A stretch of 39,278 nt of DNA from positions 1-39,278 of the IMG/VR virus record IMGVR_UViG_2524614843_000001, one strand, 5' to 3'. Numbering within the stretch: the first letter of the stretch is position 1; every line of letters starts with the position of its first letter. Position numbers and translations under genes: made by a program. This stretch comes from a virus. Taxonomy: Duplodnaviria; Heunggongvirae; Uroviricota; Caudoviricetes. The notes under the pieces were generated by a model. That model was not told the DNA's origin. It did not search any database and saw only the letters and a list, made by a program, of their open reading frames with translations. Positions 869-38,663 of this stretch are shown here, one piece after another.

Positions 869-886
869 TTGATCAGCGGTGACTTA
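869..886. promoter_or_regulatory. Dyad operator-like site O1
   Basis: Minus strand TAAGTCA-ccgc-TGATCAA; overlaps the predicted -10/+1 of the leftward promoter. Confidence 0.65.
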
Positions 887-913
887 TTTACCGTCCGTCA
901 TGTAGTTTGTCAA
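885..913 (-). promoter_or_regulatory. Putative sigma70 promoter for the cobT-like gene
   Basis: TTGACA (913-908), 17-bp spacer, weak -10 TAAATA (890-885). Confidence 0.5.
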
Positions 914-923
914 CAGTGACTTA
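906..923. promoter_or_regulatory. Dyad operator-like site O2
   Basis: Minus strand TAAGTCA-ctgt-TGACAAA; overlaps the TTGACA -35 box. Confidence 0.75.
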
Positions 924-1092
924 TATTGCTTCTATTTGTATTGTGAAGTCTCTACTATGGGGACGTGAAGGCTTTTGCAACCTGCCGAAATACTCAAGTT
1001 GCGAGAGCCATTGATAAGAGAACGCTTATTTTGAAGTTTTGGAGCTGGGTTTGTGCTCATATTTGACGGGAATCTATGAATCCCGCATAAGA

Positions 1093-1110
1093 CACTTCAC
1101 TGCTTACTTA
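1093..1110. promoter_or_regulatory. Degenerate operator-like site O3
   Basis: Minus strand TAAGTAA-gcag-TGAAGTG, 10/14 arm matches, in the divergent intergenic region. Confidence 0.4.
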
Positions 1111-1166
1111 TTATTTACTAGAATAGCAGTGCGTTTATTCAGAACGCATTAACTATGTTTAATACC

Positions 1167-1184
1167 TAAGTCACAACTAACTAA
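1167..1184. promoter_or_regulatory. Dyad operator-like site O4
   Basis: TAAGTCA-caac-TAACTAA, 28 nt upstream of the HTH gene start. Confidence 0.7.
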
Positions 1185-1212
1185 CTATCTTAGGTAGGAT
1201 TGAGGAATCGAT

Positions 1213-1701
1213 ATGGCTAGACCGCTTAGCAGTTATGAAAGTGATAATGAGGTTGCAAAGTTTATTGAGAAACGAATCAATGAACTGACAACCATTTCGG
1301 GAGGGGAAATATCCCAGGCAGATATTGCCAGGCAGGCGGGATTCTCTAAACCGAACATAATCAATATGCTCAAGAAAGGCGCGACAAAAGTGCCGCCAAG
1401 CCGTGTAATGGCATTGGCAAAAGCTCTCGGAGCTGACCCTGCGTACTTCCTAGAATTGGTATTGAAAGACCAAGATCGTTACTCCGGAATTATGGACGCC
1501 TTGAAAGAAATATATGGCGAAAATATCCTCAGAAGTCCAACCCTCTCCCAAGATGCAGAGGCAATCTATTCCGAATTGAAAGCACTTTCAAATGGAAAGG
1601 CGCTGAAATTTGACCCGACCCACCCAGCTACCGCTGCGGCCCTGAAAAATCTTGTTAATTCAATGGCTCAAGTAGCGCAAGACGAAGCCGAAGAATCGTG
1701 A
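1213..1701 (+). CDS. XRE/Cro-like HTH transcriptional regulator, candidate phage repressor
   Basis: SQADIARQAGFSKPNIINMLKKGATKVP...ALAKALGADP HTH signature; GAGGA RBS; divergent from the lytic-side gene and flanked by dyad sites. Confidence 0.8.
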   Translation: MARPLSSYESDNEVAKFIEKRINELTTISGGEISQADIARQAGFSKPNIINMLKKGATKVPPSRVMALAKALGADPAYFLELVLKDQDRYSGIMDALKEIYGENILRSPTLSQDAEAIYSELKALSNGKALKFDPTHPATAAALKNLVNSMAQVAQDEAEES

Positions 1702-1735
1702 GCCTTTCTGGTGGAAGTGACGAATATTTAGGAAT

Positions 1736-1757
1736 GAAGGGGGCGTTTGCCCCCTTC
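1736..1757. terminator. Likely bidirectional intrinsic terminator between the convergent HTH and recombinase genes
   Basis: GAAGGGGGC-GTTT-GCCCCCTTC, 9-bp stem. Confidence 0.75.
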
Positions 1758-1764
1758 GCTATTT

Positions 1765-2853: not shown

Positions 2854-3040
2854 GGCGTGCGCTCCGTTTTTACGACGGTTTCTTAAACCGTCGCAATACC
2901 GCGAATTTACTAGGTTTGACTGGTTCGGTGTAGTAACAAGTGTAGTGAATGGCTATTTCACCAACAGGTTAGGGTGGTTTTTCAGCCATGAAACGTGTCT
3001 TTGCACGCTTGGAATAATTTTATGGCTGATTTTTCATCAA

Positions 3041-3107: not shown

Positions 3108-3179
3108 AACTTCAAACCCTCATCTATTCGTGGTCTAATTCAGCAACACCTATAAACACACCGAACTAAGGGAACCGTC

Positions 3180-4313: not shown

Positions 4314-5324
4314 ATGAGCCAGAAAGACGACAAAAAAGGCAGCTCTGAGCTGCCTCATAAGATCGAGACAATTGCCGACCGTGTACGGCAAATGGGAGAG
4401 AGTGCGCGCTCAAAAGGCCCGAAACAGCTCCCGCTTTTTGGCGAGAAGTATGCTGTAGCACCTAATGAGTTCGGCCGCGCCGCGCTCTTCAAAGTACGCA
4501 ACAACAAAGAACCTCGCCAACGCTACGACGACTCAGTTGTATTTACTGCCGGCAACCACCGCATTCTTTTCTCGGGAGAAGAGTTGCGCGACGATGATGA
4601 CCAGCTGGTTTGGTACTCCATTCTTCGGCTCGCACAAGCTTCCGGCCAAGACTTGCGTGAACCCTTCGAGGTAACAGGCTGGCAACTGCTGCACGATCTG
4701 AAATGGGGTAACGATGGCAAAAGCTATCGCCGGCTGCGTGCGTGTATCAAACGCCTTCGCCGCGCCTCCTTGACCGTTCACTCGCCCAAGTTTGATGGCG
4801 TCAGCGAATCCAAGAGCCTCGACTTCAATATGATTCGGAAGTACGAGTTTGGTGATGGCATCAGCCATGAGGCTGAGAATGAGCCGGCCTTCGACACGTT
4901 CGATGAAGGCGGGAAGCTACTCGAGCCAAATTATGAAGAGCTCGACAGGAATCAGATTAAAGACGCTATCCGACGCTCTAAATGGAAGATCTGGCTCGAG
5001 GAAGAGGTTTACCTGCTGTTCCGCGCTGATCAGTTTGCCCTGCTCAATTGGGATAACTTCTTGGAGCTGGGCAGCGTTGCTCGTCAGATGTATCTGTATT
5101 ACTCAACGCATCGATCACCCTTTCCGCATCCAGTTTCCCTTATCTACCGCCTGGTCGATAGCAACGACACCAATACGTCACGGTTCCGGAATAAGGTCAT
5201 TCGTGCGCTGGATGAGCTGAAACAGATCGACTTCCTCGCCGATCACAGCATCGAGCGTAAACCTGATGGCCAGTACGAGATCAGCGTCCGTCGAAAATTG
5301 AAGGACCAAACGCCGAAAAAGTGA
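4314..5324 (+). CDS. trfA: Plasmid replication initiator, TrfA (RK2/IncP-1) family
   Basis: PNEFGRAALFKVRNNKEPR, FSGEELRDDDDQLVW, DLKWGNDGKSY, LFRADQFALLNW and VARQMYLYYSTHRSPFP match, as recalled, RK2 TrfA blocks PNDTARSALFTTRNKKIPR, YTGVELRADDDELVW, LFAGDHYTKFIW and TARRMFDYFSSHREPYP. Confidence 0.88.
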   Translation: MSQKDDKKGSSELPHKIETIADRVRQMGESARSKGPKQLPLFGEKYAVAPNEFGRAALFKVRNNKEPRQRYDDSVVFTAGNHRILFSGEELRDDDDQLVWYSILRLAQASGQDLREPFEVTGWQLLHDLKWGNDGKSYRRLRACIKRLRRASLTVHSPKFDGVSESKSLDFNMIRKYEFGDGISHEAENEPAFDTFDEGGKLLEPNYEELDRNQIKDAIRRSKWKIWLEEEVYLLFRADQFALLNWDNFLELGSVARQMYLYYSTHRSPFPHPVSLIYRLVDSNDTNTSRFRNKVIRALDELKQIDFLADHSIERKPDGQYEISVRRKLKDQTPKK

Positions 5325-5356
5325 TCGATTATCCGGTCGCTTCCTCGTTCGCACAG

Positions 5357-5557
5357 TATCGTGCTTTGAGGTATGAGGCCGAAGAGACTAGCGTGCTTTG
5401 AGGTATGCCGCTCTCTTCCTTTTATCGTGCTTTGAGGTACAAATGGGCAGGCGAAAATCTGCCCATTTTCATTTAGAGAGCCTATCGTGCTTTGAGGTAT
5501 GGCCTCTAACGTGCTTTGGAGTATTTGAGGGCGGGATTTATCGTGCTTTGAGGTATG
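5357..5557 (+). repeat. Iteron cluster A: 6 direct copies of (TAT)CGTGCTTTGAGGTATG with irregular spacing
   Basis: CGTG cores at 5360, 5392, 5426, 5486, 5510 and 5542. Confidence 0.92.
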
Positions 5558-5665
5558 AATCCCGCGCATTTAGCTGTGTAGTGACTACATCGAAACCACT
5601 CCCCCGTTTGATGTATCACTTTAGAATGTGGTGTTAGACGATTGATATATATAGCTTATTGCTAT

Positions 5666-5674
5666 TTGTCCACA
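5666..5674 (+). promoter_or_regulatory. Possible DnaA box (one mismatch)
   Basis: TTGTCCACA versus consensus TTWTNCACA, located between the two iteron clusters. Confidence 0.4.
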
Positions 5675-5697
5675 GAAGGGCTCTTTTGTGACGGTCA

Positions 5698-5846
5698 TAT
5701 CGTGACTTGAGGTATGCAATATCGTGTCCGGAGGTATGGCCTATCGTGACTTGGAGTACAGGGTACCGTGACGAGAGGTATGACAGACGTGACTTGGGGT
5801 ATTTTATTACGTGCTTTGAGGTATGAAATTACGTGACCAGAGGTAT
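5698..5846 (+). repeat. Iteron cluster B: 7 helically phased copies; likely oriV core
   Basis: CGTG cores at 5701, 5723, 5745, 5767, 5788, 5810 and 5832 (21-22 bp period, about two helical turns), followed by an AT-rich tract. Confidence 0.9.
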
Positions 5847-5885
5847 AAAAAACACTTTAAGTATCACGTTCAACACGATGAATCG

Positions 5886-7669: not shown

Positions 7670-8281
7670 TCAAATGATGTTGAGCAGGTTGGGAGCTGGC
7701 ACAACGGGTTTAATGACAGGGAAGTTCTCACCCAACGCTTCCCACTTGTTGAAGTCCGGTTTCGCATCCGGAATAGCTGTTTTTGACGCAGAAACGGGGC
7801 TATCTTGCTTCGCTAGCTCGCTGACGACTGCTGAGTACATATCCGAAACCGCGAGCTCTGAGCGCGTTTCTGGGGCTTTTACCGCTGAGTCCTTCTTGGA
7901 TTGGGCCAAAACCGGTTTGGCAGAAGGGAGGGCGAAGCGGCTGGCGGGCTTGGCGCCCCACACCGTCACCTGTTTTCTCTCCGCCTGTCTCGCTTCCTCT
8001 TCGGCCTTGATGGCTGCGCGCGAAACGAAGTAGATGGCCTTGTAACCAGCGCCGCGCTCTTCATCCATCATCTGCTTTGCTCGGCAGGTGTTCTTTTCGA
8101 TAGCCGCTGCGCAGTCGTTGTAGATTGATGGCAACTTGCCCTCGTAATGCTTGCTGACCTTGTGACAGCAAACCGCATAGCCCTGCTGATTTTGCAGAGT
8201 AGGGCAGTGCATGTAGTGGGCGTTGTCACCCACGTTAGCGCTTGGATAGTCGGAAAAATGATAGTTATTCATTCGTGACAT
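7670..8281 (-). CDS. Hypothetical protein, Cys/His-rich N-terminal half
   Basis: 203-aa ORF between primase and ligase, co-directional; HCP...CCH...C...C pattern. Confidence 0.65.
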   Translation of the reverse strand: MSRMNNYHFSDYPSANVGDNAHYMHCPTLQNQQGYAVCCHKVSKHYEGKLPSIYNDCAAAIEKNTCRAKQMMDEERGAGYKAIYFVSRAAIKAEEEARQAERKQVTVWGAKPASRFALPSAKPVLAQSKKDSAVKAPETRSELAVSDMYSAVVSELAKQDSPVSASKTAIPDAKPDFNKWEALGENFPVIKPVVPAPNLLNII

Positions 8282-8340
8282 ACCTTTGTAGTTTCGTTCA
8301 GTTCCTTTTATTTTCTACGCTGCAGTCCGGCTGGTTCAGG

Positions 8341-10981: not shown

Positions 10982-11775
10982 AGACTGTTCTCCTGTTGAA
11001 GTTCGCAATTATAAGTCAGCGATGACTGATTATTGCAAGCGTTTGATGGGAAAAGTGTGTTGGCATACTCCAAAGCCCGATAAACATAATCGCCACCCAG
11101 GCGATCTCTGACGATCGATTCCGGCAGTCGGCCATCGATAATCCGCTGGCCAATAGCGACCTGGTGAGGGTATGAATCGTGGCCGTATCGAGTCAGCTGA
11201 TAGTCGATATACGCCAGCTGATGCTCATTCCCGCAGAATTGGCTTGCGTGGTAGCGTGGGTCAACGGGGTCTCGCATGGCCGCGGACTGGTGTTTCTTCC
11301 AATCCTCACCCATTGCCTCGCCAATATCGTCGCTGTAAAGCTGAGCCGGCAGCGGGTGACGTTCCCAGCATTGCTCTTCTGCAATACGCATGATTGAGTT
11401 GCAGAAGAAGTCATAAGGAATGCCATGTCTATCGGCCTGCTGACGGGCGCGAACGATGCTGGTTGTATGCTTGTTGGCGAACGGGTCGAGCGCGTCCTTC
11501 AAGGGCATTTTGACCTCTGCCATCTTGTAGTCGTACCGTGTCCGGACGAAGAATTGGCGGTAAGCCATGATGTAGCAGTGATTGAACCAGTAGGTTGCCA
11601 TTACCGGATGTAGAAAGCGGTAATCAAACCACTTGGTTTCGTAGAGCTCGGCCTCTACAGAACGGGTTTTGAGTGTTCTGGCAGCGTAAATCGAATCCAT
11701 TTCCGGAAGTGATTTATCACAGCCATAAAAAGCGGTTCCGAGGAAATCCGCAGGGGATATGTTTTCCATTCCCAA
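10978..11775 (-). CDS. Hypothetical protein coupled to the helicase
   Basis: 265-aa ORF with GGAGG RBS; ATGA coupling to the helicase. Confidence 0.8.
   Translation of the reverse strand: MGMENISPADFLGTAFYGCDKSLPEMDSIYAARTLKTRSVEAELYETKWFDYRFLHPVMATYWFNHCYIMAYRQFFVRTRYDYKMAEVKMPLKDALDPFANKHTTSIVRARQQADRHGIPYDFFCNSIMRIAEEQCWERHPLPAQLYSDDIGEAMGEDWKKHQSAAMRDPVDPRYHASQFCGNEHQLAYIDYQLTRYGHDSYPHQVAIGQRIIDGRLPESIVRDRLGGDYVYRALEYANTLFPSNACNNQSSLTYNCELQQENSL
11012..11029. promoter_or_regulatory. Dyad site O5 in the spacer of a putative helicase promoter
   Basis: Minus strand TCAGTCA-tcgc-TGACTTA; perfect TATAAT at 11013-11008; TTGCAA at 11038-11033 (19-bp spacer). Confidence 0.8.
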
Positions 11776-14054: not shown

Positions 14055-14072
14055 TAAGTCAATGGTTACTTA
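14055..14072. promoter_or_regulatory. Dyad site O6
   Basis: Minus strand TAAGTAA-ccat-TGACTTA; contains the upstream stop codon and abuts the SD of the next gene. Confidence 0.8.
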
Positions 14073-15685: not shown

Positions 15686-15734
15686 AAAGAAACCCTCCCT
15701 ACCTGAAATCGTACCGATCACAGGTAGGGGAGTA

Positions 15735-15752
15735 CAAGTCATCACTGACTTA
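15735..15752. promoter_or_regulatory. Dyad site O7
   Basis: Minus strand TAAGTCA-gtga-TGACTTG; its first TAA is the stop codon of the amidase gene. Confidence 0.85.
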
Positions 15753-16641: not shown

Positions 16642-16659
16642 TTAGTAAGCGGTGAGTTA
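16642..16659. promoter_or_regulatory. Dyad site O8
   Basis: Minus strand TAACTCA-ccgc-TTACTAA, intergenic. Confidence 0.6.
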
Positions 16660-17839: not shown

Positions 17840-19221
17840 GCTTTGTACCCGATGGATTCGTTGAAGATTGCCAGTCTCGACTCTATTAGCTCAGTCACCG
17901 ATGACTGATTTAATTGGCCAGATTGTTGAAGCTTGCGCAGCATCGTCATGACTTCTGGCGCACCACGGAGCTCGGCCGAAACGTCCCGATTCATGGCGGC
18001 ACAAGCCTTCTCCCTCGCCTGGCTCTTTTTGAGCACGGCAAATAGCGGCGACCAGAGTGCAGCGAGTGTCTCGTCTGACGATTTGCCTTTGGCCAATTCC
18101 AGCGCCATTGCTCTGAAATCATTGCCAATCAGAGGGATTCTGTCGCGCCAACCGTATTCTTGGCTGAAATAGAAGTCGTCCCGCGATACGCCAAAGTCCA
18201 GCAACTCGGTACCTGTTTTTAGCCACTCCACCCACTTTTCAGTGAAAGCAGCGGTCTCGACCGGTTTTTTGGCATACAGGCTTTGAATTTCGGCTTCCGA
18301 CAGGCCGATGATCTGCAGTGATGCTCGTTCACGCGCCTGTTTAGCCCACGATTCGACTTGCGACTGAATACGCTGATAGCCAGTCGAATAATCCGCGGTA
18401 CTCTTCCAAGGCGCCGCGCGCTGCAGCAGTACAGTCGCAGCCTGGTTGCCGGCCTCGAGGAGCTCATCCCAAAATGCCACACCCATACTTGAGGCCGAGG
18501 TGTTCCGGAAGTCCGGTTTTACTGACATTGAGCCCGTGTCGAAGATCTGGCCGGCCACGTCAAAGTTATCAATAGGCGAGCCGCCAATGCTGATTCTTCG
18601 CGCCCAAAGCGTCGCTACGCTGGCCAGAGTGCGCTTTACCAAGTCCTCAATCATTGAGTAACGATCAACGCTGGGCTCATAACCTAGAAAGGTCGGCGCT
18701 TGTTCATAGTTGATCTGATTCAGGTGGCTAATGCGCAGAGGAAAATCACGGACCAGCAGTGCGGCATTGTCGGCAAACTCGAATTCCGGCTTGGCTAGCG
18801 CCTGAGCTTTGCGCTCTGGCGACAACTCGAAAAACGCAGGGTGAGTTGGTACCGACTTTTCAAGCAGTGCAAAGCCCTTCACGCGGATACCTCGGCCGAA
18901 AAGTCGATAGAGCATTTCCAGATACAGCGCTTCGATTACCGCGTCTTTCAATGACAGCAGGCCTGTCCCGTATGTACCCGCATTTTCATTGGCAAATGGC
19001 GTCTTTCCGGCGCCTTTGACGCTTAACCCATTGAAGTAAACCGCCCTCCCCGAGCCACCAATGCCCCAGCTGCAATAGCAGTCTGCCCAGGCGGGCATGT
19101 TCGTCTGATCGGATTCGGTGGAGATCAGGTATTGGTCAATTTGAAAGCCTTGTTGCAGCCACAGCGCCTGGCCTTTAACTTTGCCGACTTTTACATCGGT
19201 CATTTTGATCAGATCGATCAT
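17836..19221 (-). CDS. SelO/YdiU (MchC/MceJ-like) pseudokinase-fold nucleotidyltransferase
   Basis: GSGRA (vs GDGRG), SVKGAGKTPF (vs HLKGAGLTPY), IEAL, ALLVR...LRISHL (vs AMLMR...HLRFGHF), PIDNFDVAGQIFDTG (vs NTDNMSLLGLTLDYG); comparisons are from recalled YdiU motifs. Confidence 0.72.
   Translation of the reverse strand: MIDLIKMTDVKVGKVKGQALWLQQGFQIDQYLISTESDQTNMPAWADCYCSWGIGGSGRAVYFNGLSVKGAGKTPFANENAGTYGTGLLSLKDAVIEALYLEMLYRLFGRGIRVKGFALLEKSVPTHPAFFELSPERKAQALAKPEFEFADNAALLVRDFPLRISHLNQINYEQAPTFLGYEPSVDRYSMIEDLVKRTLASVATLWARRISIGGSPIDNFDVAGQIFDTGSMSVKPDFRNTSASSMGVAFWDELLEAGNQAATVLLQRAAPWKSTADYSTGYQRIQSQVESWAKQARERASLQIIGLSEAEIQSLYAKKPVETAAFTEKWVEWLKTGTELLDFGVSRDDFYFSQEYGWRDRIPLIGNDFRAMALELAKGKSSDETLAALWSPLFAVLKKSQAREKACAAMNRDVSAELRGAPEVMTMLRKLQQSGQLNQSSVTELIESRLAIFNESIGYKA
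17891..17908. promoter_or_regulatory. Dyad site O9, inside the SelO-like 3' end, ~52 nt upstream of the PgaC-like start
   Basis: TCAGTCA-ccga-TGACTGA, a perfectly symmetric variant. Confidence 0.7.
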
Positions 19222-22265: not shown

Positions 22266-22283
22266 TTAATCACCAATGACTAA
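22266..22283. promoter_or_regulatory. Dyad site O10
   Basis: Minus strand TTAGTCA-ttgg-TGATTAA; contains the upstream TAG stop and the GGTGA SD of the fibre gene. Confidence 0.65.
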
Positions 22284-24117: not shown

Positions 24118-24146
24118 ATCATAAGTCAGTCATGACTTATCAACAA
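24118..24146 (-). promoter_or_regulatory. Dyad site O11 (24122-24139) filling the spacer of a putative sigma70 promoter
   Basis: Perfect ATAAGTCA-N4-TGACTTAT; TTGTTG (24146-24141), 17-bp spacer, TATGAT (24123-24118). Confidence 0.85.
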
Positions 24147-29558: not shown

Positions 29559-29576
29559 AAAGTCACAGATGACTTA
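29559..29576. promoter_or_regulatory. Dyad site O12
   Basis: Minus strand TAAGTCA-tctg-TGACTTT, immediately after the gpM stop codon. Confidence 0.85.
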
Positions 29577-29933
29577 TTATACCTCCCGAAGTTTAGCGTC
29601 GTGGCAATTCCAGTAATGAACCCCGCCAGCACCGATGTACTGAAAGCTGATCTTGCCTTGAAATCGAACATTGATGACTTCACCGGTGGTCGGAACCGTA
29701 AACTGGAAGATGCCGCTGCCGCCTCTGACTGAGTAGTAGAAACTCTCGATCAGGGTCTTTTGCTGCTGGCTCAGAAACGTCCAGCCAATCGAGAAGGTAC
29801 GCCGGCCGCGTCGGGTTGTGCGAGCTCGCGTGAGCTCGTAGCCACCCTCCATTTCGTGCCGAATCGTGTTGTCCTCCAGTTCCTCGCTGTACTTGGATGA
29901 GTCGAGTTGGTCATTTAAAGGCAGAGAAGCCAT
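29577..29933 (-). CDS. Distal tail protein (gpM-like)
   Basis: 118 aa between TMP and L; EMEGGYE..R...R.F...W...F...V.GGSG.F.F pattern. Confidence 0.8.
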   Translation of the reverse strand: MASLPLNDQLDSSKYSEELEDNTIRHEMEGGYELTRARTTRRGRRTFSIGWTFLSQQQKTLIESFYYSVRGGSGIFQFTVPTTGEVINVRFQGKISFQYIGAGGVHYWNCHDAKLREV

Positions 29934-29945
29934 ATTTACCTCCTT

Positions 29946-32900
29946 TTATGAGCTCATTGCCGATTTCAACCCGTCGCGGAATGCGCCAGGCTTAGATGCC
30001 TCAGTCAGCACCACATCCATCACATAGCTTCTGCCGTCGAAGCGCATATTGCCCTTCTCGGCATTCATGCTGTTGGTGGTCTGGTTAATGACGTTCACCG
30101 TGACCTGTGGCGCCTGAGAGCCTGCATTTCCATTCACACGAACACCCAGCCGGCCATTCCCGTCGCGCGACAGCGGCATGATGGCTTCCGGACCAGCCTC
30201 GCCCATCAAGCCCATGTTGAAGTAAGTTGGAGTGTTGACCAGTGCATTGGTGAACGCTCCACCTTTGGCGAACTGCTTGATTGGCTGGCCACCGATGAAG
30301 GCGTTACCCTTGGCGCTGGCAAGGAAGCCGCCGAATAGGTTGCCCAATCCCTGAACCGCCCAATCGGTAAAGCCTGACAGCGCCTTCCGCATGGCGATTT
30401 TGGCAATGTCCGACAGGATAGACTCGGTGAGCTTTCCGAACTCGAACTTGCCGGCCTTGGCCATGTCGATGAATGAATCGATTGTTCGATCAGTCCAGTC
30501 GATCACCCCTTTCTTCATCGCATCGGTGGTGTCCTCCCAATCTCGGCGGATTTTGGCAAATGGATTGCCTGCCTCTTCGGCCATCTGCTTGATTTGGTCA
30601 CTGATCGTATTGACCGCCTCGCGCATCTGATCTGCCTGCTCTTGGCTCAGACCAGGTATTTTTAGCCGGATGCTCAGTGCTTCTTGCCATGATTCCAGTT
30701 CGCGCTGCAGACGTTGCCGTTGCCGCTCAGAATCGGTCATCAGACCGTCGGCATTGCCATTGATCTGATTGCGCGCACGCTCCATAAACTCGCCAAAATC
30801 AGCCTTGGCTGCAGATTCCTCTGCTTGCTTGGCAAACTTGTCGAAGTCGGCCTGAGCGCTGCCCAGATCAATCTTCTTGAGCTCCGCAATTGCCTCTTCC
30901 AGCTTGGTAGAGCGCAGTTTGATCTTGCCGGTCGCTTCCGTTGTTCGCTCGTCAATTTGCCGCGCCTCAAGACCGTATTGATTGCCAAGATCTCGAATGC
31001 GCTCAATGGCGCGCTCTTGCATCTTGCCAAACTCGGTACCCGCTTTGATCTCTGCCAATTTGGCGATCTGAGCCTCGGTGAGCTTGGCGTCCTTCTCGTC
31101 CTTCTGGAAATAGCGAGTGGTGTCATTCAGCGTTTTATACCGCTGGAAATACTTGGCCTTGAGCTCATCCAGCGTCATCAGGGCGCTTTCGGCCTGCTCA
31201 TAGCTCTTGCCGGCCGCGACCGCATCAGCAGCTTCCCGAATCAGCTTTTCGCGCTCTTCCTCGAAAGCAGACTTCTCAAGTGATTTTGGTTTTGGCGGCT
31301 TTTTCGTGCCTGCTAGCGAAGTGGTTGGCTTGGAAAAGTCGATGGCGTCCGTCTTTTGAAGCGGCTTCATCTTCTCTTCGACCTGCTCGATGGCAGATTG
31401 AATCTTGGCCGTCTCTCGCGCGTTACCCTTGGCGCTTTCCAGTCGTTTGGCTAAACCGTCTCTGAGTGTGGTGTAAGCCTGCAGCTGCTCGGCATTCGAC
31501 TGCTCAATGAACTTCTGCAGCGCCTGAGCACGCTTCTTCTCGTCCCCATCGCCCTTTTGAGCGTAGAGCCGGTTGAACTCGACTTGATCTTTGCTTTTCT
31601 TGGCTTCAATGCGCGCGACTTCTTCACGAACCAGACTGAACCCCGCCTCTTGATCACGCTGCTTTTGCAGGTTTTCAGAGATGAGCTTTTCAGTACCGCG
31701 AGCGTCTTTAAGTGCTGTTTCTGCCTTGTCCCATGCTGCCTTGAGGCCATTCTGCTCTTTCTGATACTCGGCTCGCAGTTTATCGAACTCTAACTTGGCC
31801 TTCCGGTACTCTTCGGAGTCCTTCTTCATTTTCGCCATGCGAGCTTCTGCAAGAGCAAGCGATCTGTCCTGTCTTTCTTTCGTTACGAGGTAACTAGCTC
31901 TAGCAGCCTGAACGTCTTTGAACTTGTCTCCAATTTGCCCTTTTGCTTTATCCAGCTCTTCTTGCGTTGCAATGCCACCGCTAGCGACTCTCATTGCCGC
32001 ACGAGTTGCTGCAGCCGCACGATCTGCCGCGGATTCCATCATGGCCAGATAGGTGACTACCCCCAGGATTGCGGTGATTGCCAACCCTGCAGGTCCGCCG
32101 AGCGCGCCAAGCACAGCGCTAAGGCCGCGTCCAGCGATTGTGGCGGCAGTTGTGGCGGCAGCCCATGTGCGCGATACTGCGGCGGCCTGTACGACTTGGC
32201 GTTCGTGCCGTGCAATTTGTTGATTCACCTGAACAAGCCGCTGCTGCATTGGGCCAATCGCACCGGAAAAGCTGCGTCCAACACTGTCGTATTCACGGCG
32301 AAGGGTGGCGAATGAGGCTTTGGTTTCCGCTGCAGCCCGAGAAGCCGCCGCGGCCATTGCTACGTTCGCGCTCTTGGTTTGCGCTTCCAGTACATTAACC
32401 TCGGCTCGCAACGCCTTGCTTTCGCGCTGCAGCTCGGCCGCGCGCTGCTTAGTTACTGCAACCAGCTGACCATTGATAATCTCTCCTACCACACGATTAT
32501 TCGTGCCAAAGTAGACCCGAGATAGCTGCTGTTGAATATCACGAATACGCTGTTGAGCCGCAGCAACTTCAATCCCACGTTTCACTTCGGCTTCTTTGAT
32601 CGCCATAGCGATACGCTGCTGCGAGGCCGTTTGCTCAGCCTGCATCCGTGCCATTATTGAGGCGCGAGCTGACTCAAGTTCTGCCTTCTGCGCTGCAATG
32701 CCGGCTTCCAGTACCTGCTTCTGATTCGCCAAAGCAGCCGCTTGTTGCTGGAATTGCTCGCCAGCCACGCTATTCAGGCGCATCCGTCCTAGACGCTGTG
32801 TGGCATCGTAGAGGCCTAAAATGGAACCTCTCGTCGCAGCCGCTCGTTCGCCGAGCGAACGCATTGCGTCGCCAACTGCGCTCGACACCTTCCAGAGCAC

Positions 32901-33914
32901 AAACGCACCCGCAGCCAGCTTGATCGCCGGCGCCAGCGTAGCCATTACTTCCGCGAGCTTGACCGCTGCGTTCGTTACATCTGCCAGTGATTGACCGACC
33001 TCTCGGCCAAATTGCCGAGTGTCGCCATTAGCCAAGCCCTCGATCAGCTTATCGATTGCGTTCTTGGCCGCATCGGCGAATGCACCGTCGCCCACTTCGG
33101 TCTTGAAGAGCATCCACTCGGTTTTCAAGCGCTCGAGCTGGCCAGGCAGCGTGTCCATCATTTTTGCCGCTGCACCGCCGTTCATGTACTCCAACACGGC
33201 GATCATGCGGCGCAAGGCGTCATTAGCTTCAACGGTACCGGTTGAGATCTTCTTGGTCAGTTCGGCCATAGACATACCGGTACCCACCGCCATTGCCTGA
33301 ATGGCGTTTGGCACAGCTTCACCGAGCTGCTGACGCAGTTCTTCCATCGAGACCACGCCCTTACCGGCCATCTGCTGAATCGCAATGGAGGCGCGCTTGA
33401 GCTGCTCGCTGCTGCCACCAAATTTCGCTACCGAGTCGATCAGTGCTTGCAGAGAGCCATCTGCAGGGTCGAGACCGGCCGATTTCAGCTTCACGAATGA
33501 GTCTGAGATCGCCTTGATCTCGAAAGGCGCGCTCTTCGACATATTGATGACGAAGGTGCGGTTACTGATCGCCTCTTGGCGGCGCGCGAGTTCCTCGGTC
33601 TGCTTCGACAGACCTTCCATCAGCATCGTCATCCGTTCCATTTCGCCGGATGCCTGCAGGAATGAGGCCGGCAGCGCGAACAGGATATTGCTCAGCGTAT
33701 CGAAGGCATGGCCGAGCAAGCCGAGGGTCACTACCCCGTTATGGAACGTCCGGAAAAGCGAGCTCGATGAGGTTTCTGCACGCTGGGAGGCTCGGTCGAG
33801 CTGCTCCAGGCGAGAACGTAGCTCACCGACCCGCTGACCCGCTTTGGCCGCGCTGGCGGAAAACTTATCGCCATCGAGCTCAAGCGTGATCGAGATCTTG
33901 CCTGCACTATTCAT
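29946..33914 (-). CDS. Tape measure protein
   Basis: 1322 aa, Ala-rich and helical; tape-measure domain (APFEI...QMAGKGVVSMEELRQQLGE); C-terminal ANGNAF-like and MGEAGPEAIMPL motifs. Confidence 0.95.
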   Translation of the reverse strand: MNSAGKISITLELDGDKFSASAAKAGQRVGELRSRLEQLDRASQRAETSSSSLFRTFHNGVVTLGLLGHAFDTLSNILFALPASFLQASGEMERMTMLMEGLSKQTEELARRQEAISNRTFVINMSKSAPFEIKAISDSFVKLKSAGLDPADGSLQALIDSVAKFGGSSEQLKRASIAIQQMAGKGVVSMEELRQQLGEAVPNAIQAMAVGTGMSMAELTKKISTGTVEANDALRRMIAVLEYMNGGAAAKMMDTLPGQLERLKTEWMLFKTEVGDGAFADAAKNAIDKLIEGLANGDTRQFGREVGQSLADVTNAAVKLAEVMATLAPAIKLAAGAFVLWKVSSAVGDAMRSLGERAAATRGSILGLYDATQRLGRMRLNSVAGEQFQQQAAALANQKQVLEAGIAAQKAELESARASIMARMQAEQTASQQRIAMAIKEAEVKRGIEVAAAQQRIRDIQQQLSRVYFGTNNRVVGEIINGQLVAVTKQRAAELQRESKALRAEVNVLEAQTKSANVAMAAAASRAAAETKASFATLRREYDSVGRSFSGAIGPMQQRLVQVNQQIARHERQVVQAAAVSRTWAAATTAATIAGRGLSAVLGALGGPAGLAITAILGVVTYLAMMESAADRAAAATRAAMRVASGGIATQEELDKAKGQIGDKFKDVQAARASYLVTKERQDRSLALAEARMAKMKKDSEEYRKAKLEFDKLRAEYQKEQNGLKAAWDKAETALKDARGTEKLISENLQKQRDQEAGFSLVREEVARIEAKKSKDQVEFNRLYAQKGDGDEKKRAQALQKFIEQSNAEQLQAYTTLRDGLAKRLESAKGNARETAKIQSAIEQVEEKMKPLQKTDAIDFSKPTTSLAGTKKPPKPKSLEKSAFEEEREKLIREAADAVAAGKSYEQAESALMTLDELKAKYFQRYKTLNDTTRYFQKDEKDAKLTEAQIAKLAEIKAGTEFGKMQERAIERIRDLGNQYGLEARQIDERTTEATGKIKLRSTKLEEAIAELKKIDLGSAQADFDKFAKQAEESAAKADFGEFMERARNQINGNADGLMTDSERQRQRLQRELESWQEALSIRLKIPGLSQEQADQMREAVNTISDQIKQMAEEAGNPFAKIRRDWEDTTDAMKKGVIDWTDRTIDSFIDMAKAGKFEFGKLTESILSDIAKIAMRKALSGFTDWAVQGLGNLFGGFLASAKGNAFIGGQPIKQFAKGGAFTNALVNTPTYFNMGLMGEAGPEAIMPLSRDGNGRLGVRVNGNAGSQAPQVTVNVINQTTNSMNAEKGNMRFDGRSYVMDVVLTEASKPGAFRDGLKSAMSS

Positions 33915-33931
33915 ATTTCACCTGTGACTTA
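33914..33931. promoter_or_regulatory. Dyad site O13
   Basis: Minus strand TAAGTCA-cagg-TGAAATA; begins with the upstream TAA stop, contains the AGGTGA SD and touches the TMP ATG. Confidence 0.75.
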
Positions 33932-34297
33932 ATTACCAAATTTCATCGACATGGTTTGTTCTTTGAGCCAGTTCAGTCCTTCTTCGTCCCGAGCCGCATT
34001 GAGCGACTGGTTTTGCCGGTGCTCTTCACTTTCAACGTGCGTCACCCCTACTTCTTTCTTGAGCCCTTCTCGCAATTCGGTGATGTATTCGCCGCCAGCA
34101 CCGAAGCTGCCTGCCATGACCACATCCACGCGGCGCAAATCTTCCCAAGCAGAAACTCGATTGATTTGCCGGCACAGAAACCAAAATGCCCTCGCTGGGA
34201 GCTCTAAGACTTCCCGCAAGGGCATCTGATAAAAGCGCATGACCTGGGCCACCATGAAACCAAGGTCTAATTGCTTGAAGGGCTCAATCAGTTTCCC
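33929..34297 (-). CDS. Tail assembly chaperone, frameshift extension (gpT-like)
   Basis: Frame is open from the slippery site (GKLIEPFKQLDLGFMVAQVMRFY...) to TAA 33929. Confidence 0.8.
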   Translation of the reverse strand, partial: GKLIEPFKQLDLGFMVAQVMRFYQMPLREVLELPARAFWFLCRQINRVSAWEDLRRVDVVMAGSFGAGGEYITELREGLKKEVGVTHVESEEHRQNQSLNAARDEEGLNWLKEQTMSMKFGN

Positions 34298-34644
34298 GCT
34301 TGGGCGCCCTGTTCCTGATCTTCTGACACGTCTGCCTTGATTTGGGCCTCGAGCTCTTCAACAGTCACACCGCGGACAAATTGAGTCACGATGGTCAGCT
34401 CATTCAGCGTCATGCTTTCCAGCACATCAATAGGCATCGAAGGCACGGATTTTTGTACCACCTTGATCATTTCTTCGATCATGGATTTCGTGTCGCCGGT
34501 CATTGCCACTTCTTGAAGGCGATCGCCCTCTTGTTTGCCACGCAGGAAGTCGGCGAGCGTGAATGACTTCACCTCGTAATTGACCCCCTTAAAGCGCAAG
34601 TACCGCTCTGGCGGCATTAACTCATCGATGTTTAGCAGTTCCAT
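34288..34644 (-). CDS. Tail assembly chaperone (gpG-like) (start revised to 34644)
   Basis: Between tail tube and TMP; ends ...GCG GGA AAC TGA. Confidence 0.85.
   Translation of the reverse strand: MELLNIDELMPPERYLRFKGVNYEVKSFTLADFLRGKQEGDRLQEVAMTGDTKSMIEEMIKVVQKSVPSMPIDVLESMTLNELTIVTQFVRGVTVEELEAQIKADVSEDQEQGAQAGN
34291..34297 (-). other. Programmed -1 ribosomal frameshift heptamer G GGA AAC
   Basis: Canonical X XXY YYZ in frame immediately before the gpG stop; the -1 frame joins the downstream ORF. Confidence 0.9.
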
Positions 34645-34658
34645 TTTGCTTTCTCGGA

Positions 34659-34682
34659 ATGGGGAGCGCTGCAACTCCCCAT
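34659..34682 (-). terminator. GC-rich hairpin after the tail tube gene (partial terminator or mRNA stabiliser)
   Basis: ATGGGGAG-8 nt-CTCCCCAT; poor U-tract. Confidence 0.5.
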
Positions 34683-34699
34683 AAGTTACCTATGACTTA
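34682..34699. promoter_or_regulatory. Dyad site O14
   Basis: Minus strand TAAGTCA-tagg-TAACTTA, 1 nt after the tail tube stop. Confidence 0.85.
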
Positions 34700-35525: not shown

Positions 35526-35543
35526 GTGATTATCTCCTAAATG

Positions 35544-35561
35544 TATGTCATCGCTGACTTA
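35544..35561. promoter_or_regulatory. Dyad site O15
   Basis: Minus strand TAAGTCA-gcga-TGACATA, directly after the TGA stop and upstream of the tube RBS. Confidence 0.85.
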
Positions 35562-35960: not shown

Positions 35961-36472
35961 CAGAGAACCTCTTTAACCGCGTTGTAAATGCTGGCGCTTA
36001 CTGCTTTTGCGCGCTCTTCGCCGGCTCTCTCCAGAAACTTCGGACCGACTACGCCACGCCCTGCATCTTTCGCCTGAGAGAGCTCACCTAGCTCGTAAGA
36101 AGCCCTAATCGACCCGTCTTTGCCGCGAGAGAAGCCTTCATGGATGAAGTAGAGATATTCGCCAACCGCCTTGCCGTCCTCTACGTGCTGCTCGTCCACA
36201 TACACAAAGAACCGCTTACGCCGGTTGATGCCGCCCTGATCTTCGGCGATCTTGATGGCGTTCTCTAGCCGGCCCGTATCCACTGGTGCATAGTCAATCG
36301 CCAGCTCCCGCATCCTTTCTGCTTCAAGGCGCATCCGGTCAACAGCGTGCTTCATGACCCGCTTACCCACCTGCTCAATGGCAGCGGTTACGAGCGATTC
36401 GACCGGAAGCTTGCTGCTGCCCTGCACCCAGCCATTCATGCCCAGCAGGTTTGCAGAGATTTTGATACTCAT
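35960..36472 (-). CDS. HK97 gp10-like neck / tail-completion protein
   Basis: APVDTGRLENAI, Y..FIHEG and PKFLERA motifs. Confidence 0.85.
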   Translation of the reverse strand: MSIKISANLLGMNGWVQGSSKLPVESLVTAAIEQVGKRVMKHAVDRMRLEAERMRELAIDYAPVDTGRLENAIKIAEDQGGINRRKRFFVYVDEQHVEDGKAVGEYLYFIHEGFSRGKDGSIRASYELGELSQAKDAGRGVVGPKFLERAGEERAKAVSASIYNAVKEVL

Positions 36473-36807
36473 GTGGCCCGCTCCAACTCGACCTGCAGAT
36501 GATCAATGCCGCCGTAGAGCTTAGGGCGCGGAAATACGCCAACTACTCGCAAGCGTTGATTCATGATCTTCACCGTGTCGTTGTGCTCGATCTTGGTCTC
36601 TGGCGGAAAAAGCAAGCGCACATCGGCGGTTGCTTCTTCTGCTGAGCCCCGAGAAGCCGAGCTGTCAGTCCGGACGTAGGTTTTGTCGATGTTCAGGTTC
36701 ATCGTCACGATATGGCACTTGGCAAAGTGACGGCTCAGTTCAGTCTCTTGGCCGTAGTTGTCGTACCCCGTTTTGACGATTTCAACTGTGCAAGTCGGCT
36801 TTCTCAT
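36469..36807 (-). CDS. Head closure / head-tail adaptor (start revised to 36807)
   Basis: YDNYGQ N-terminus, beta-rich, ~112 aa, synteny; ATGA overlaps. Confidence 0.7.
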   Translation of the reverse strand: MRKPTCTVEIVKTGYDNYGQETELSRHFAKCHIVTMNLNIDKTYVRTDSSASRGSAEEATADVRLLFPPETKIEHNDTVKIMNQRLRVVGVFPRPKLYGGIDHLQVELERAT

Positions 36808-37325
36808 TTGGCCACCCCGATAAACTGCCAACTGCTCTGAGGGTGGAAATACTCATCAGCCACAGCTAAAAGCTCATTGCCGGAAGGTTGAACGGTGAGT
36901 CGCTCCATGCGCAAATTGCCAAACTCAAGCGGCTGACCTTCGTTTTCTACCAGCTGATTTGCCAGATTGATGCGTACTGCATACCAGCGCGCGGCCAGAT
37001 ACACGTAATCAGACGCTTTGACCATCCGATTGCCGGCGTTGAGCAGCTTGATCGAATCAAGTGGGTTCACACCTGCCGTTAGCTTGGCCTTCTCGGCTTT
37101 GCGCATGACGGGAACGATGTAGCTCTCGATAAAATCCACCACATCGGCCATGACCGGCGACTGAAACGATGCCGGAGAGGTGGCCATATTCAGCGCCATG
37201 CGACGAATGCTCTGTAAATGAGCCTGTCGTGGTTGAATAGGCTTGCCTGCAACTGCCACGCCGGCTGCAAATGAGGAAACCGAGCTCAGCACAAGCGCCG
37301 CAAAGCTATCCTGATGGCTGATCAT
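36804..37325 (-). CDS. Hypothetical protein in the head-tail module (start revised to 37325)
   Basis: ATGA coupling at both ends. Confidence 0.7.
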   Translation of the reverse strand: MISHQDSFAALVLSSVSSFAAGVAVAGKPIQPRQAHLQSIRRMALNMATSPASFQSPVMADVVDFIESYIVPVMRKAEKAKLTAGVNPLDSIKLLNAGNRMVKASDYVYLAARWYAVRINLANQLVENEGQPLEFGNLRMERLTVQPSGNELLAVADEYFHPQSSWQFIGVAK

Positions 37326-38116
37326 CGCTCGTACCCCACACGGAAAGTCACAAATCGACCCAATGCTTCCACCGCGCGACGGCAAACTGGCAAGCGCAGC
37401 GGCACGCTCATTCGGAACATCTGCGAGGTCTCCCCTACCGTGCTCGACATGAGGCCGTCATTGCGGTCTTGCTCCAGGTCATTGCCGCCCAGCAGGTAGT
37501 CGGCCTGAATGAGCTGGCACAGCTGCAGGGCCGCTTTAAATTCCGGCTGCGCGTCGAACTCGGCGAGGGTCATGGTTTCCAGATTCACACGCACCTCGTC
37601 TCGGGCGTACTCATCCAGAACACTCATCGCATCCACTGTCAGACACCGCCCGCGAACAATGCGCAAATTGAGCTTCTTGATCTGTCCATAGGATTCGATC
37701 AGGGCAGCGCGTTGCTGTGCATCAGAAGCGTTTTCCCAGCCCGAAAGACGCGCTAATCCGGACGCGAGCAGGATTGCTTCGTCATGGGTTAATGCAGACT
37801 GTGCTGGCACGACAAAAGGCACATTCGACTCGATCAGGTAGGTCTGACTAACCTGCGCTTTGCCTTCTGGATGCTCGACGGTGAAGATCACTCGGCGCAG
37901 TGCGCGCATCGAGCTGGTCAAGTTGATACTCAGCGGAATATTGGCGATCAGATGCCCGTTAATGTTTTGCGCACTGGTGTCGCCCATCAGAATGTTGCCG
38001 CGCTCATCTTTGACGATGAATGTGGTTTGGTAGCCCGAGAGCTCGAGACGCTCAATCAACGCCAGATCTAGGTCGAGCGTGACCGGCGTGCCGCTTGAGA
38101 AACGCTTCTGCGACAT
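37322..38116 (-). CDS. Head-tail connector/adaptor-like protein
   Basis: C-terminal helical domain W..AS..QQRAALI...QADYLLG...STVGETS, typical of adaptor proteins; GGAGG RBS. Confidence 0.65.
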   Translation of the reverse strand: MSQKRFSSGTPVTLDLDLALIERLELSGYQTTFIVKDERGNILMGDTSAQNINGHLIANIPLSINLTSSMRALRRVIFTVEHPEGKAQVSQTYLIESNVPFVVPAQSALTHDEAILLASGLARLSGWENASDAQQRAALIESYGQIKKLNLRIVRGRCLTVDAMSVLDEYARDEVRVNLETMTLAEFDAQPEFKAALQLCQLIQADYLLGGNDLEQDRNDGLMSSTVGETSQMFRMSVPLRLPVCRRAVEALGRFVTFRVGYER

Positions 38117-38126
38117 GCCGGCCTCC

Positions 38127-38582
38127 TTATTTCTGAGCCGCGAGGATGTTTTCGATCAGCTCGGCAATCGATTTGCCACCTTGGGCGCCCACTTCGCGCG
38201 CCACTTCGCGCAAGCCTTTGATGCCTTCCTTGTCCGCGATTTCACCCAGCGATTCCGCGCTATATGCGTTCGCTTTTGATTGAACGGCTTCCGGCTGCTG
38301 CACAACTTGCTCTTCAACCGGTGCGCGCTCCTGAATTGCAAAGAACTCAGCGGTTGCGACCGACACTTCATGCTGTGACTGCATCACAATGGCCTGATCA
38401 ATGTTTTCTGCACCTTCTGGAAGCACAAATTCACCACCGAAATTGCTGGCGATGCGCTTTGCAACTCGCGGCAAAATTGGCTCAGATAGACCGTCCACGA
38501 ATTTGACGCTGGCAATTTCCGATTCGCCTGGGTATTGCTCGGGATTCAGCTGGATGCGAACTAGGTGTTTGAGTTGTTCCAT
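38127..38582 (-). CDS. Hypothetical protein with C-terminal small helical (Rho-N/HeH-like) domain
   Basis: IADKEGIKGLREVAREVG...KSIAELIENIL; GAGGT RBS; directly after the capsid gene. Confidence 0.7.
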   Translation of the reverse strand: MEQLKHLVRIQLNPEQYPGESEIASVKFVDGLSEPILPRVAKRIASNFGGEFVLPEGAENIDQAIVMQSQHEVSVATAEFFAIQERAPVEEQVVQQPEAVQSKANAYSAESLGEIADKEGIKGLREVAREVGAQGGKSIAELIENILAAQK

Positions 38583-38618
38583 TTGAGTTACCTCATGCTT
38601 TATCTTCTGGATACGAAT

Positions 38619-38640
38619 AGGGGCGAGTTGCCCCGCCCCT
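38619..38640 (-). terminator. GC-rich hairpin after the major capsid gene
   Basis: AGGGGCG-8 nt-CGCCCCT; weak U-tract. Confidence 0.55.
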
Positions 38641-38645
38641 TATGC

Positions 38646-38663
38646 TAAGTCATTTATGACTTA
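38646..38663. promoter_or_regulatory. Dyad site O16
   Basis: Perfect TAAGTCA-N4-TGACTTA between the capsid stop and the hairpin. Confidence 0.9.

Follow-up and report, generated by a model that had tools for sequence, protein, structure and literature searches.

It is already known from other phages that one repressor can act at many dispersed sites. In P1, the C1 repressor has many operators dispersed over a plasmid prophage of ~100 kb, its own gene included. These operators are asymmetric 17-mers, C1 is not a Cro/CI-type HTH protein, and the structural and lysis operons are controlled indirectly through Lpa. The repressor of mycobacteriophages L5 and Bxb1 (gp71/gp69) has dozens of stoperators in short intergenic gaps of early and late operons, and is thought to stop transcription running through. 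Stoperators are asymmetric 13-14-mers with a strict orientation and are bound by a monomer. The repressor of the Streptomyces phage phiC31 uses palindromic conserved inverted repeats (CIRs), present at many genome positions and overlapping promoters. In the IncP-1 plasmid RK2, palindromic operators of KorA and KorB across a TrfA-type replicon coordinate many operons.

The stretch of DNA analysed here, referred to as the window, is 39,278 nucleotides long and belongs to a contig (C8) of 103,278 bp. The contig has a 45-bp terminal overlap and is probably circular. It encodes TrfA with its iterons, ParA and an integrase, and is an SSU5-like phage-plasmid of 103 kb. It carries a dispersed 18-base palindrome, TAAGTCA-N4-TGACTTA, and this regulon of about 40 dyads appears to be undescribed so far.

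Allowing up to three mismatches, the window contains 17 matches, while 100 dinucleotide shuffles gave 0.74 +/- 0.84 and never more than 3. The complete replicon holds 46 sites at up to three mismatches and 33 at up to two. Its density, ~44 per 100 kb, compares with 1-3 per 100 kb in most other host contigs, and the remaining 3.3 Mb outside the replicon has only two sites at up to two mismatches. Fourteen of the 17 window sites are mostly intergenic, while non-coding DNA makes up 6.3% of the window (binomial P = 8e-15). Most sites in the replicon lie between co-oriented genes, often flush with stop and start codons.

The first-pass annotation had listed 16 sites, described as nearly all intergenic or just upstream of a start, and had named a lack of genome-wide intergenic enrichment as what would speak against its reading; the placement given above agrees with the description and shows the enrichment. 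Fifteen of the 16 were found again at their coordinates, while the one at 1093 has no match at up to three mismatches. The weak candidate at 8265 is indeed a match, with three mismatches, though it overlaps the start of an ORF. It was also correct that the long genes J (24148-28611) and TMP (29946-33914) are free of sites, as neither has a match at up to three mismatches, and that the 7-N4-7 palindrome differs from the asymmetric P1 operators. A better-conserved upstream arm was claimed as well; this is true of the replicon, with 23 perfect upstream against 10 perfect downstream arms, but in the relatives the bias is absent or reversed. Finally, the motif search over the full replicon and its relatives that the annotation had proposed shows the dyad to be element-specific, intergenic and located at the same junctions in distant relatives.

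The sites, which have no strand, and the candidate regulator gene are as follows, in window coordinates.

869..886, no strand: dyad with 3 mismatches, lying 20 nt ahead of where the CobT-like gene starts.
906..923, no strand: dyad with 2 mismatches, lying 57 nt ahead of the leftward CobT-like gene (start 849); its inner arm and the preceding T spell TTGACA.
1093: candidate with 4 mismatches (counted by hand on the sequence), overlapping the -35 of the one sigma-70-like promoter that is predicted ahead of the HTH gene.
1167..1184, no strand: dyad with 2 mismatches, lying 28 nt ahead of the start codon of the HTH gene; a probable autoregulatory operator.
1213..1701, plus strand: candidate repressor, 162 aa, with a Cro/CI-type HTH domain at about residues 11-90.
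8265..8282, no strand: doubtful site with 3 mismatches, which overlaps ORF 7670-8281 at its start; perhaps a chance match, of which ~0.74 are expected in the window.
11012..11029, no strand: dyad with 1 mismatch, lying 30 nt ahead of the DnaB ATG (10981) and also within the 3' end of the conserved gene 10978-11775.
14055..14072, no strand: dyad, 1 mismatch, between the HslV-like peptidase gene, whose stop codon is in one arm, and a 381-aa gene starting 8 nt downstream.
15735..15752, no strand: dyad with 1 mismatch, its TAA serving as stop codon for 15750-16217; a T-run hairpin and then a holin-like gene come next.
16642..16659, no strand: dyad with 3 mismatches, in the gap separating 16667-17839 from 16223-16618.
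17891..17908, no strand: dyad TCAGTCA-N4-TGACTGA, with the identical change in both arms, within the 3' end of 17836-19221 and 51 nt ahead of the next gene's start.
22266..22283, no strand: dyad with 3 mismatches that fills the 14-nt gap ahead of the tail-fibre gene 21075-22265, overlapping the stop codon upstream and including the Shine-Dalgarno GGTGA.
24122..24139, no strand: perfect dyad, after J.
29559..29576, no strand: dyad, 1 mismatch, taking 18 nt of the 33-nt gap between the minor-tail genes 29577-29933 and 28914-29543, flush with the upstream stop codon.
33914..33931, no strand: dyad with 2 mismatches, its TAA being the stop of 33929-34255; the central 4 bases and downstream arm give AGGTGA, which is the TMP gene's Shine-Dalgarno, and the ATG of TMP starts at the last base of the dyad.
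34682..34699, no strand: dyad, 1 mismatch, directly after the major tail gene and followed by a GC hairpin.
35544..35561, no strand: dyad with 1 mismatch, lying 18 nt ahead of the start of the major tail gene; a -10-like TACATT falls at dyad position 17, and this junction has a dyad in 5/6 genomes.
38646..38663, no strand: perfect dyad, after the major head gene; a -10-like TAGCAT falls at dyad position 17, and a GC hairpin follows the dyad.

One extra match, at 5779, sits within the TrfA iteron array and is a chance resemblance.

The dyad is conserved far beyond this replicon. In it and in five complete ~115-kb IMG/VR genomes, AGTCA-N4-TGACT is the top de novo palindrome, although these relatives range from 44 to 63% GC and their core proteins are only ~40-50% identical to those of C8. 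Orthologous junctions carry the dyad at the portal gene (6/6), at CobS (6/6), in the divergent ParB/SF2-helicase gap (6/6), and at the MCP and MTP genes (5/6 each). More distant elements have variant palindromes. RHEph10 contains ~33 sites of the 18-bp form T[CA]A[GA]T[CA]AATATTGA...., while TA[GA]GTAAGTACTTAC[CT]TA occurs 18 times in E. coli Cyrano and 23 times in Klebsiella pJN2-26, with 0-1 in controls. These variants occupy the same gene junctions. Lineage-specific variants at the same junctions show that regulator and operator have evolved together.

The product of 1213-1701 is the only conserved classical HTH protein among the core genes scanned. It matches the Pfam families HTH_26 (1.7e-6, 28.6 bits, cut-off 22) and HTH_3 (1.2e-4, 22.5 bits, just under the cut-off of 23), as well as PHROG repressor and regulator families. 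In the PDB it matches 8bny, an 'immunity repressor' (E 8e-5), and KorA chains are among the weak sequence matches. The predicted model has a five-helix HTH fold in the N-terminal domain (pLDDT ~80-85 for residues 11-90), which superposes on P22 c2 (66 aa, rmsd 1.7 A; TM 0.76-0.78 by target) and on the 434 repressor (rmsd 2.0 A). The C-terminal part is helical with low model confidence, and the Foldseek E-values are weak (>0.02) because this half is poorly modelled. No autocleavage domain is recognisable in the protein.

Orthologues are syntenic and conserved in all relatives. In Cyrano and pJN2-26 the gene adjoins CobT/CobS and the integrase, and a dyad lies ~30 nt before its start. The Cyrano orthologue, CYRAN_45, is annotated as a 'putative repressor' (PMC9928086) and is expressed 10-fold over the prophage background in LF82 lysogens (PMC9928086, Table 1). 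Dyads, 3-11 per locus, are present at all 21 true viral loci where a homologue occurs, and at 20 of these one dyad precedes the tblastn match by ~170-700 bp. A 673-kb chromosomal contig carries an orphan homologue with just one dyad, which follows a TTGAAT/TATAAC promoter by 7 nt and precedes the ATG by 21 nt. Clades with different dyads also differ in the recognition helix, E[KR]PN helices accompanying a C at dyad position 2; this covariation comprises three clades only and is confounded by phylogeny. One relative, G001, has the cleanest dyads yet the most divergent HTH (E 1.9e-5), with a one-residue gap where the recognition helix begins.

The position of the dyads relative to promoters is also informative. 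Among 208 sites, 51 have a sense -10 at dyad position 17 (control ~10%), and 16 of these also have a -35 at 16-18 bp, against 2 in antisense (control ~0.9%). At 93 of the 208 sites a -10 lies just upstream of the dyad (control 6-19%). GC-rich relatives show clear examples of overlap between dyad and promoter. In the window, the dyad at 24122 fills the spacer between TTGTTG and TATGAT (17 bp), and at 11012 TTGCAA lies 3 nt upstream while the last TA of the dyad and TAAT form TATAAT, both as first annotated. About half of the sites in the replicon have no promoter-like context. A dyad in the promoter spacer or directly after the -10 has the geometry of repression.

We suggest that the dyads are probably operators of one element-encoded, symmetric and presumably dimeric Cro/CI-type HTH repressor, which is most likely the product of 1213-1701. 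The first-pass annotation had proposed that this protein acts through distributed operators, and the proposal is supported by a motif that is conserved, overlaps promoters and accompanies every homologue found; none of the computational tests able to contradict it did so. Bound at the dyads, the repressor would most likely keep the virus silent. In the lysogenic (plasmid) state it would occupy about 40 sites across the whole replicon. RNA polymerase would be excluded where the site fills the 17-18-bp spacer between -35 and -10, and likewise where it lies directly after the -10, over the transcription start. At promoter-less sites in tight operon gaps it would act on weak internal promoters or form a roadblock to read-through, and the weaker sites before the repressor's own gene would provide negative autoregulation.

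It can be speculated that one symmetric repressor does two jobs: blocking initiation at promoter sites and, at the many promoter-less late-operon sites placed between a stop codon and a ribosome-binding site, working like a palindromic 'stoperator' on which elongating polymerase is halted whichever side it comes from, or else activating -35-less promoters with the dyad at about -20. We regard such a dual role as unlikely. If it were true, the whole 100-kb programme would hang on one protein, and its specificity and ~40 sites would have evolved in step with one another throughout a very broad supergroup of phage-plasmids.

It is quite unlikely that the dyad is instead the upstream half of a phage-specific promoter, bound by an activator that switches on the genes downstream, in the way that the activator Lpa binds the inverted repeat of P1 late promoters. 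The -10-like hexamers from dyad position 17 occur at ~2.5 times the control rate, and 35 of the 51 have no recognisable -35, which would fit an activator-dependent promoter too. The dyad centre would then fall near -19.5, not far from where the P1 late-promoter repeat is reported to lie. However, the sites precede early, late, lysis and regulator genes alike. No activator is needed at the 16 sites with a proper -35 at normal spacing, and the dyad covers the start site at the 93 with an upstream -10. Many sites in the replicon end 0-20 nt before a start codon, a distance too short for that gene's promoter. Further, the orphan homologue has its dyad over its own start site, and the candidate protein is expressed in the lysogen, judging from its Cyrano orthologue.

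Similarly, we find it quite improbable that the sites are repressor operators whose binder is another conserved element protein, such as the ParB/KorB-like protein (47031-47705 on the contig) or a conserved protein without a family match. In IncP plasmids the ParB-family protein KorB is a global repressor whose palindromic operators are dispersed, and the present element shares the TrfA-type replicon. Every relative retains the ParB_N protein, and the gap upstream of it holds a dyad in 6/6, several conserved proteins lack a Pfam match, and the G001 HTH is divergent though its dyads are perfect. Against this, the ParB_N protein has no HTH or KorB domain (E<=0.01), the orphan HTH homologue has a dyad before its own gene in a non-phage context where the other element proteins are absent nearby, and short contigs with little besides the HTH gene still carry dyads.

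A palindrome that works at the mRNA level for processing, stability or translational control, forming a 7-bp hairpin joined to stop codons and Shine-Dalgarno sequences, is already disfavoured and very improbable: nearly all sites are in gaps that are transcribed as part of one long operon, in the replicon the upstream stop codon is often adjacent to the dyad or included in it, and at 22266, 33914 and 47016 the Shine-Dalgarno lies within the central 4 bases and downstream arm, but 181 of the 202 one-sided arm changes among 208 sites break a pair, compensatory changes number only 5, below the prediction from independence, the commonest arm variant of the replicon, TGACATA, gives an A-A mismatch in mid-stem, many promoters in relatives would initiate transcription within the dyad, sites also occur in divergent promoter gaps (47730), and the stem sequence itself, beyond pairing, is conserved across 44-63% GC. 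One-sided rather than compensatory changes point to a protein site on DNA, and by this pattern the dyad behaves as the site of a symmetric protein.

Returning to a repressor with dispersed operators, the system resembles P1 C1 in that both are plasmid prophages with scattered operators, here 46 in 103 kb; however, the site is an 18-bp palindrome instead of an asymmetric 17-mer, and the dyads are also found within the structural and lysis operons. The inverted repeat of the P1 late promoters controlled through Lpa lies upstream of and partly over the -10, as in a quarter of the sites here. This register without a -35 accounts for 35 of the 208 sites, compared with 16 that have a -35 and 93 with the -10 upstream, and the repeat here also lies over start sites, in -35/-10 spacers and before early genes. 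The stoperators of L5 and Bxb1 likewise occupy short gaps of transcribed operons, but the present site is symmetric and lacks a single orientation, its arm bias being absent or reversed in relatives. RK2 shares dispersed palindromes on a TrfA-type replicon, while the candidate here is of the Cro/CI-type, its presumed targets are phage genes, and the ParB_N protein has no detected KorB-type domain. With the CI/c2 repressors of lambda, 434 and P22 it shares the HTH fold, palindromic operators and own-gene sites that suggest autoregulation; those repressors have two or three clustered operator regions and an autocleaving C-terminal domain, whereas the 1213-1701 protein has a different C-terminal part and ~40 dispersed sites. 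The phiC31 CIRs are palindromic, of similar length, repeated and promoter-overlapping, as are the dyads, although phage lineage and repressor family are unrelated and phiC31 integrates rather than forming a plasmid prophage.

Seventeen positions in the window match the dyad TAAGTCA-N4-TGACTTA, an 18-bp palindrome, when up to three mismatches are tolerated, while dinucleotide shuffles give 0.74. On a map of genes supported by Pfam and PHROG matches, 14 of the 17 sites are mostly intergenic in a window that is 6.3% non-coding (P = 8e-15). The intergenic preference described in the first-pass annotation is thus confirmed, and so is the lack of sites inside the J and TMP genes at the same threshold. 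Fifteen of its 16 sites were also recovered. The exception is 1093, which by our own count has four mismatches and is rejected as a member; it overlaps the -35 of the sole sigma-70-like promoter predicted before the HTH gene. The weak candidate at 8265 does match with three mismatches, but it overlaps an ORF start and is doubtful. A match at 5779 is rejected as a chance resemblance produced by the iteron array in which it sits. The relevant features of the window are:

1213-1701, plus strand, gene of a 162-aa candidate Cro/CI-type HTH repressor
4314-5324, gene of a TrfA-type initiator
5350-5860, array of about 12 iterons with the consensus ATCGTGCTTTGAGGTATG and a spacing that is often 22 bp, directly downstream of the initiator gene, the probable plasmid origin (oriV)
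24148-28611, gene J
29946-33914, gene TMP

The window is the start of contig C8 (103,278 bp, GC 0.536). A tandem 12-bp repeat, TTCGGACTCGGG, inside a CobT-like gene gives the contig ends a 45-bp overlap (window 1-60; G000:C8:103234-103278), so C8 is probably a circular replicon that was broken within the repeat. It encodes an integrase, ParA, the TrfA-type initiator with its iterons, ligase, primase, DnaB and PhoH, together with siphovirus head and tail genes and lysis genes, and beyond those CobT/CobS-like proteins, DnaE, RecA, FEN, a gp32-like protein, SbcCD and a ParB_N protein. The element is an SSU5-like phage-plasmid; a megablast search with 25 kb of it gave no match to named phages. Almost every gene lies on the minus strand, with the dyads in the gaps between genes. 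C8 carries 46 dyads at up to three mismatches and 33 at up to two, while the remaining 3.3 Mb contain only two at the latter threshold. Only a few bases separate three dyads from strong GC-rich hairpins that come next (38600-38645, 34640-34681 and 15690-15734, minus strand), the last with a T-run; these dyads are 38646 after the major head gene, 34682 after the major tail gene and 15735 before a holin-like gene. Another short palindrome, AGCTC-N3-GAGCT, is present in 5-8 copies in C8 and in two relatives (G003 and G004).

The dyad is not confined to C8. An exact-pattern scan found many IMG/VR contigs of 80-120 kb with several perfect copies, and five complete relatives (114-119 kb, GC 0.44-0.63) have 18-44 sites each at up to two mismatches, against 0-6 for the reversed control. 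Their core proteins share only about 40-50% identity with those of C8. In an unbiased count of all 5-mer palindromes, AGTCA-N4-TGACT ranks top in all six genomes. The sites recur at the same junctions:

Before the portal gene, 6 of 6 genomes
Before CobS, 6 of 6 genomes
In the divergent ParB/SF2-helicase gap, 6 of 6 genomes
Before the major capsid gene, 5 of 6 genomes
Before the major tail gene, 5 of 6 genomes

In the GC-rich relatives two arrangements of dyad and promoter are seen. In the spacer type, the dyad occupies the promoter spacer: 1-2 nt separate it from a preceding -35-like hexamer (TTGAAC, for example), and its last TA, together with nnAT, forms the -10. In the start-site type, the dyad covers the transcription start, since an extended -10 (TGCTATGTT or GCTATAAn) stops 3-8 nt short of it. 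Over the 208 sites of the six genomes the dyads show a fixed -10 register:

Sense -10 at dyad position 17, 51 of 208 sites (control about 10%)
Sense -10 at position 17 with a -35 at 16-18 bp, 16 sense and 2 antisense (control about 0.9%)
Sense -10 just upstream of the dyad, 93 of 208 sites (control 6-19%)

Sites 11012, 24122, 35544 and 38646 of the window are of the spacer type, in line with the earlier proposal that the first two fill a promoter spacer. The spacer and start-site positions are both classical for repression, and it is very probable that the dyads are dispersed operators of some repressor. They could instead be activator-dependent promoter elements, which we consider unlikely. 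The normal 17-bp spacer speaks against activation of the MerR type. Promoters with a strict sigma-70 consensus occur less often than in shuffles (9 vs 15.2 in the first half of the window, 2 vs 11.0 in the second), and a strict scan of the window overlapped none of the confirmed dyads, its one overlap being with the rejected 1093. The 3' arm was also tried as a -35 (TTGAC[AT]) with a -10 about 17 bp on, and no -10 enrichment was found at offsets 33-38. About half of the C8 sites have no promoter context; as operators they might act on weak internal promoters or as roadblocks. Start-site-type dyads in G004 are preceded by a conserved module of about 40 nt, GATTCCG...CAGCCGC...TGCTATGTT, with the counterpart GCAATCCG-N13-GCTATAAn in G003 (L135-L140 and L147-L152, loci of these two genomes), which points to a separate class of promoters that share this operator.

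Variants of the dyad are found in other clades. In Rhizobium phage RHEph10, T[CA]A[GA]T[CA]AATATTGA[CT]T[GT]A is present at about 33 sites, and TA[GA]GTAAGTACTTAC[CT]TA occurs 18 times in the E. coli phage-plasmid Cyrano and 23 times in Klebsiella pJN2-26 (reversed controls 0-1), neither of which is enriched in the C8-type dyad. All variants keep the skeleton T-A-n-G-T-n-A and the 18-bp length, and they occupy junctions equivalent to those of C8: the portal gene in 3 of 3, and also gp32, SbcD, ParB/helicase, the major tail gene and the HTH gene. So the binding specificity drifted between clades with dozens of sites following, which requires a binder encoded by the element. Cyrano (L166-L171) and pJN2-26 (L178-L183) also contain a second dispersed palindrome, AAACAA-N-TTGTTT, with 17-18 sites at up to one mismatch; it has no copies in RHEph10 at that threshold, is not among the top palindromes of C8, and may mark a second regulator.

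The putative binder is the 1213-1701 protein, a probable assignment. It matches HTH_26, HTH_3 and PHROG repressor families. In the structural model its N-domain can be superposed on those of P22 c2 and 434 repressor, and its family profile hits PDB 8bny, an 'immunity repressor'. Orthologues with 33-39% identity and a well conserved helix-turn-helix (SQ..IA...GY.KPN.I.M.K.G..KVP) are found in all five IMG/VR genomes, RHEph10, Cyrano and pJN2-26. The gene order CobS-CobT-small gene-HTH-integrase of the latter two mirrors C8, and a dyad precedes the HTH gene start by 28 nt in C8 and about 30 nt in both. In lysogens of E. coli LF82, expression of the Cyrano orthologue CYRAN_45, annotated as 'putative repressor', exceeds the prophage background 10-fold; the majority of Cyrano genes are absent from the expressed list, and Cyrano is induced by ciprofloxacin (PMC9928086).

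With the HTH protein as single query, a related-loci search reaching only close relatives found none and a homologous-protein search returned only the query. The profile search gave 2,800 clusters (50% identity) at E <= 1e-3, 1,316 of them with E <= 1e-10. The profile was also used to locate 22 IMG/VR loci, of which one seems a false match. Each of the 21 kept loci contains 3-11 dyads in a span of at most 20 kb; in 20 of them a dyad lies about 170-700 bp, mostly 190-310 bp, upstream of the match. Contigs encoding four diverse homologues were mostly too short for motif statistics, L184, L185 and L186 being informative. The most telling case is an orphan homologue (L185, 9900-10003) among transposases and a RelE/HTH pair in a 673-kb chromosomal contig. 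Exactly one dyad is found there, TCACTCG-ATAC-TGAATGA. It is preceded at 7 nt by a TTGAAT/TATAAC promoter and followed at 21 nt by the ATG; the HTH gene and its dyad alone travel together. The HTH family is thus not restricted to phage-plasmids. Clades that differ in their dyads also differ in the recognition helix (DKPNxISMFK, TQSNMVTMIK in RHEph10, KN[AP]NxLSLIK in enterics), and within the C8-type clade dyad position 2 has C instead of A where the helix is E[KR]PN. Such covariation may be taken as a hint, confounded by phylogeny.

It is improbable that another protein binds the dyads, a reading that overlaps with the repressor-operator one on function; no other classical HTH was found among the conserved core proteins scanned. 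We lean towards the joint reading as the best explanation, that the dyads are dispersed operators of an element-encoded Cro/CI-type repressor, with 1213-1701 as the candidate.

That the dyad is an RNA element is very improbable. Among the 208 sites, 202 one-sided arm changes destroy a pair (181) or give G-T (21), and only five double changes keep the pair, fewer than predicted for arms changing independently; TCAGTCA, TAAGTAA and TATGTCA recur as half-sites. The dyad thus behaves as a degenerate binding site of a symmetric protein and unlike a selected hairpin. C8 dyads are fused to stop codons and Shine-Dalgarno sequences, which we read as a by-product of fitting an 18-bp site into gaps of 14-33 bp. 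In minus-strand view, the four bases before them (-3 to 0) are biased to T-[AT]-A-[AG], often TAAG-TAAGTCA, for which stop codons account only in part, and 67% of the sites have T at -13; no convincing register was found for this TWAR flank as a -10 box. The better conservation of the upstream arm, noted earlier, holds in C8 (23 vs 10 perfect arms) but not in the relatives (23/26, 22/19, 19/26, 28/35 and 4/11), and is a peculiarity of C8. A host transcription-factor site is rejected, because the host chromosome has essentially no sites and the sequence is the same in relatives from hosts of 44-63% GC.

SSU5-like phage-plasmids are described in the literature as frequent in Enterobacteriaceae and many other bacteria, some with antibiotic-resistance genes. 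The analysis yields a candidate master repressor family of at least 1,300 clusters at 50% identity, its predicted operator, and, for several clades (E. coli Cyrano and Klebsiella pJN2-26 among them), a map of the regulon resolved to single sites. Operator variants that are specific to a clade but stand at conserved positions form a natural series on the joint change of specificity in a repressor and dozens of sites, and are a possible source of orthogonal repressor/operator pairs. Full-text searches found no literature on the motif or on SSU5-group operators and, as far as could be searched, no description of the lysis-lysogeny switch of SSU5-like phage-plasmids. The repressor family, its predicted operator and the co-evolving variants seem to be undescribed, while dispersed operators as a kind are known from P1 C1, the L5 stoperators, the phiC31 CIRs and IncP KorA/KorB.
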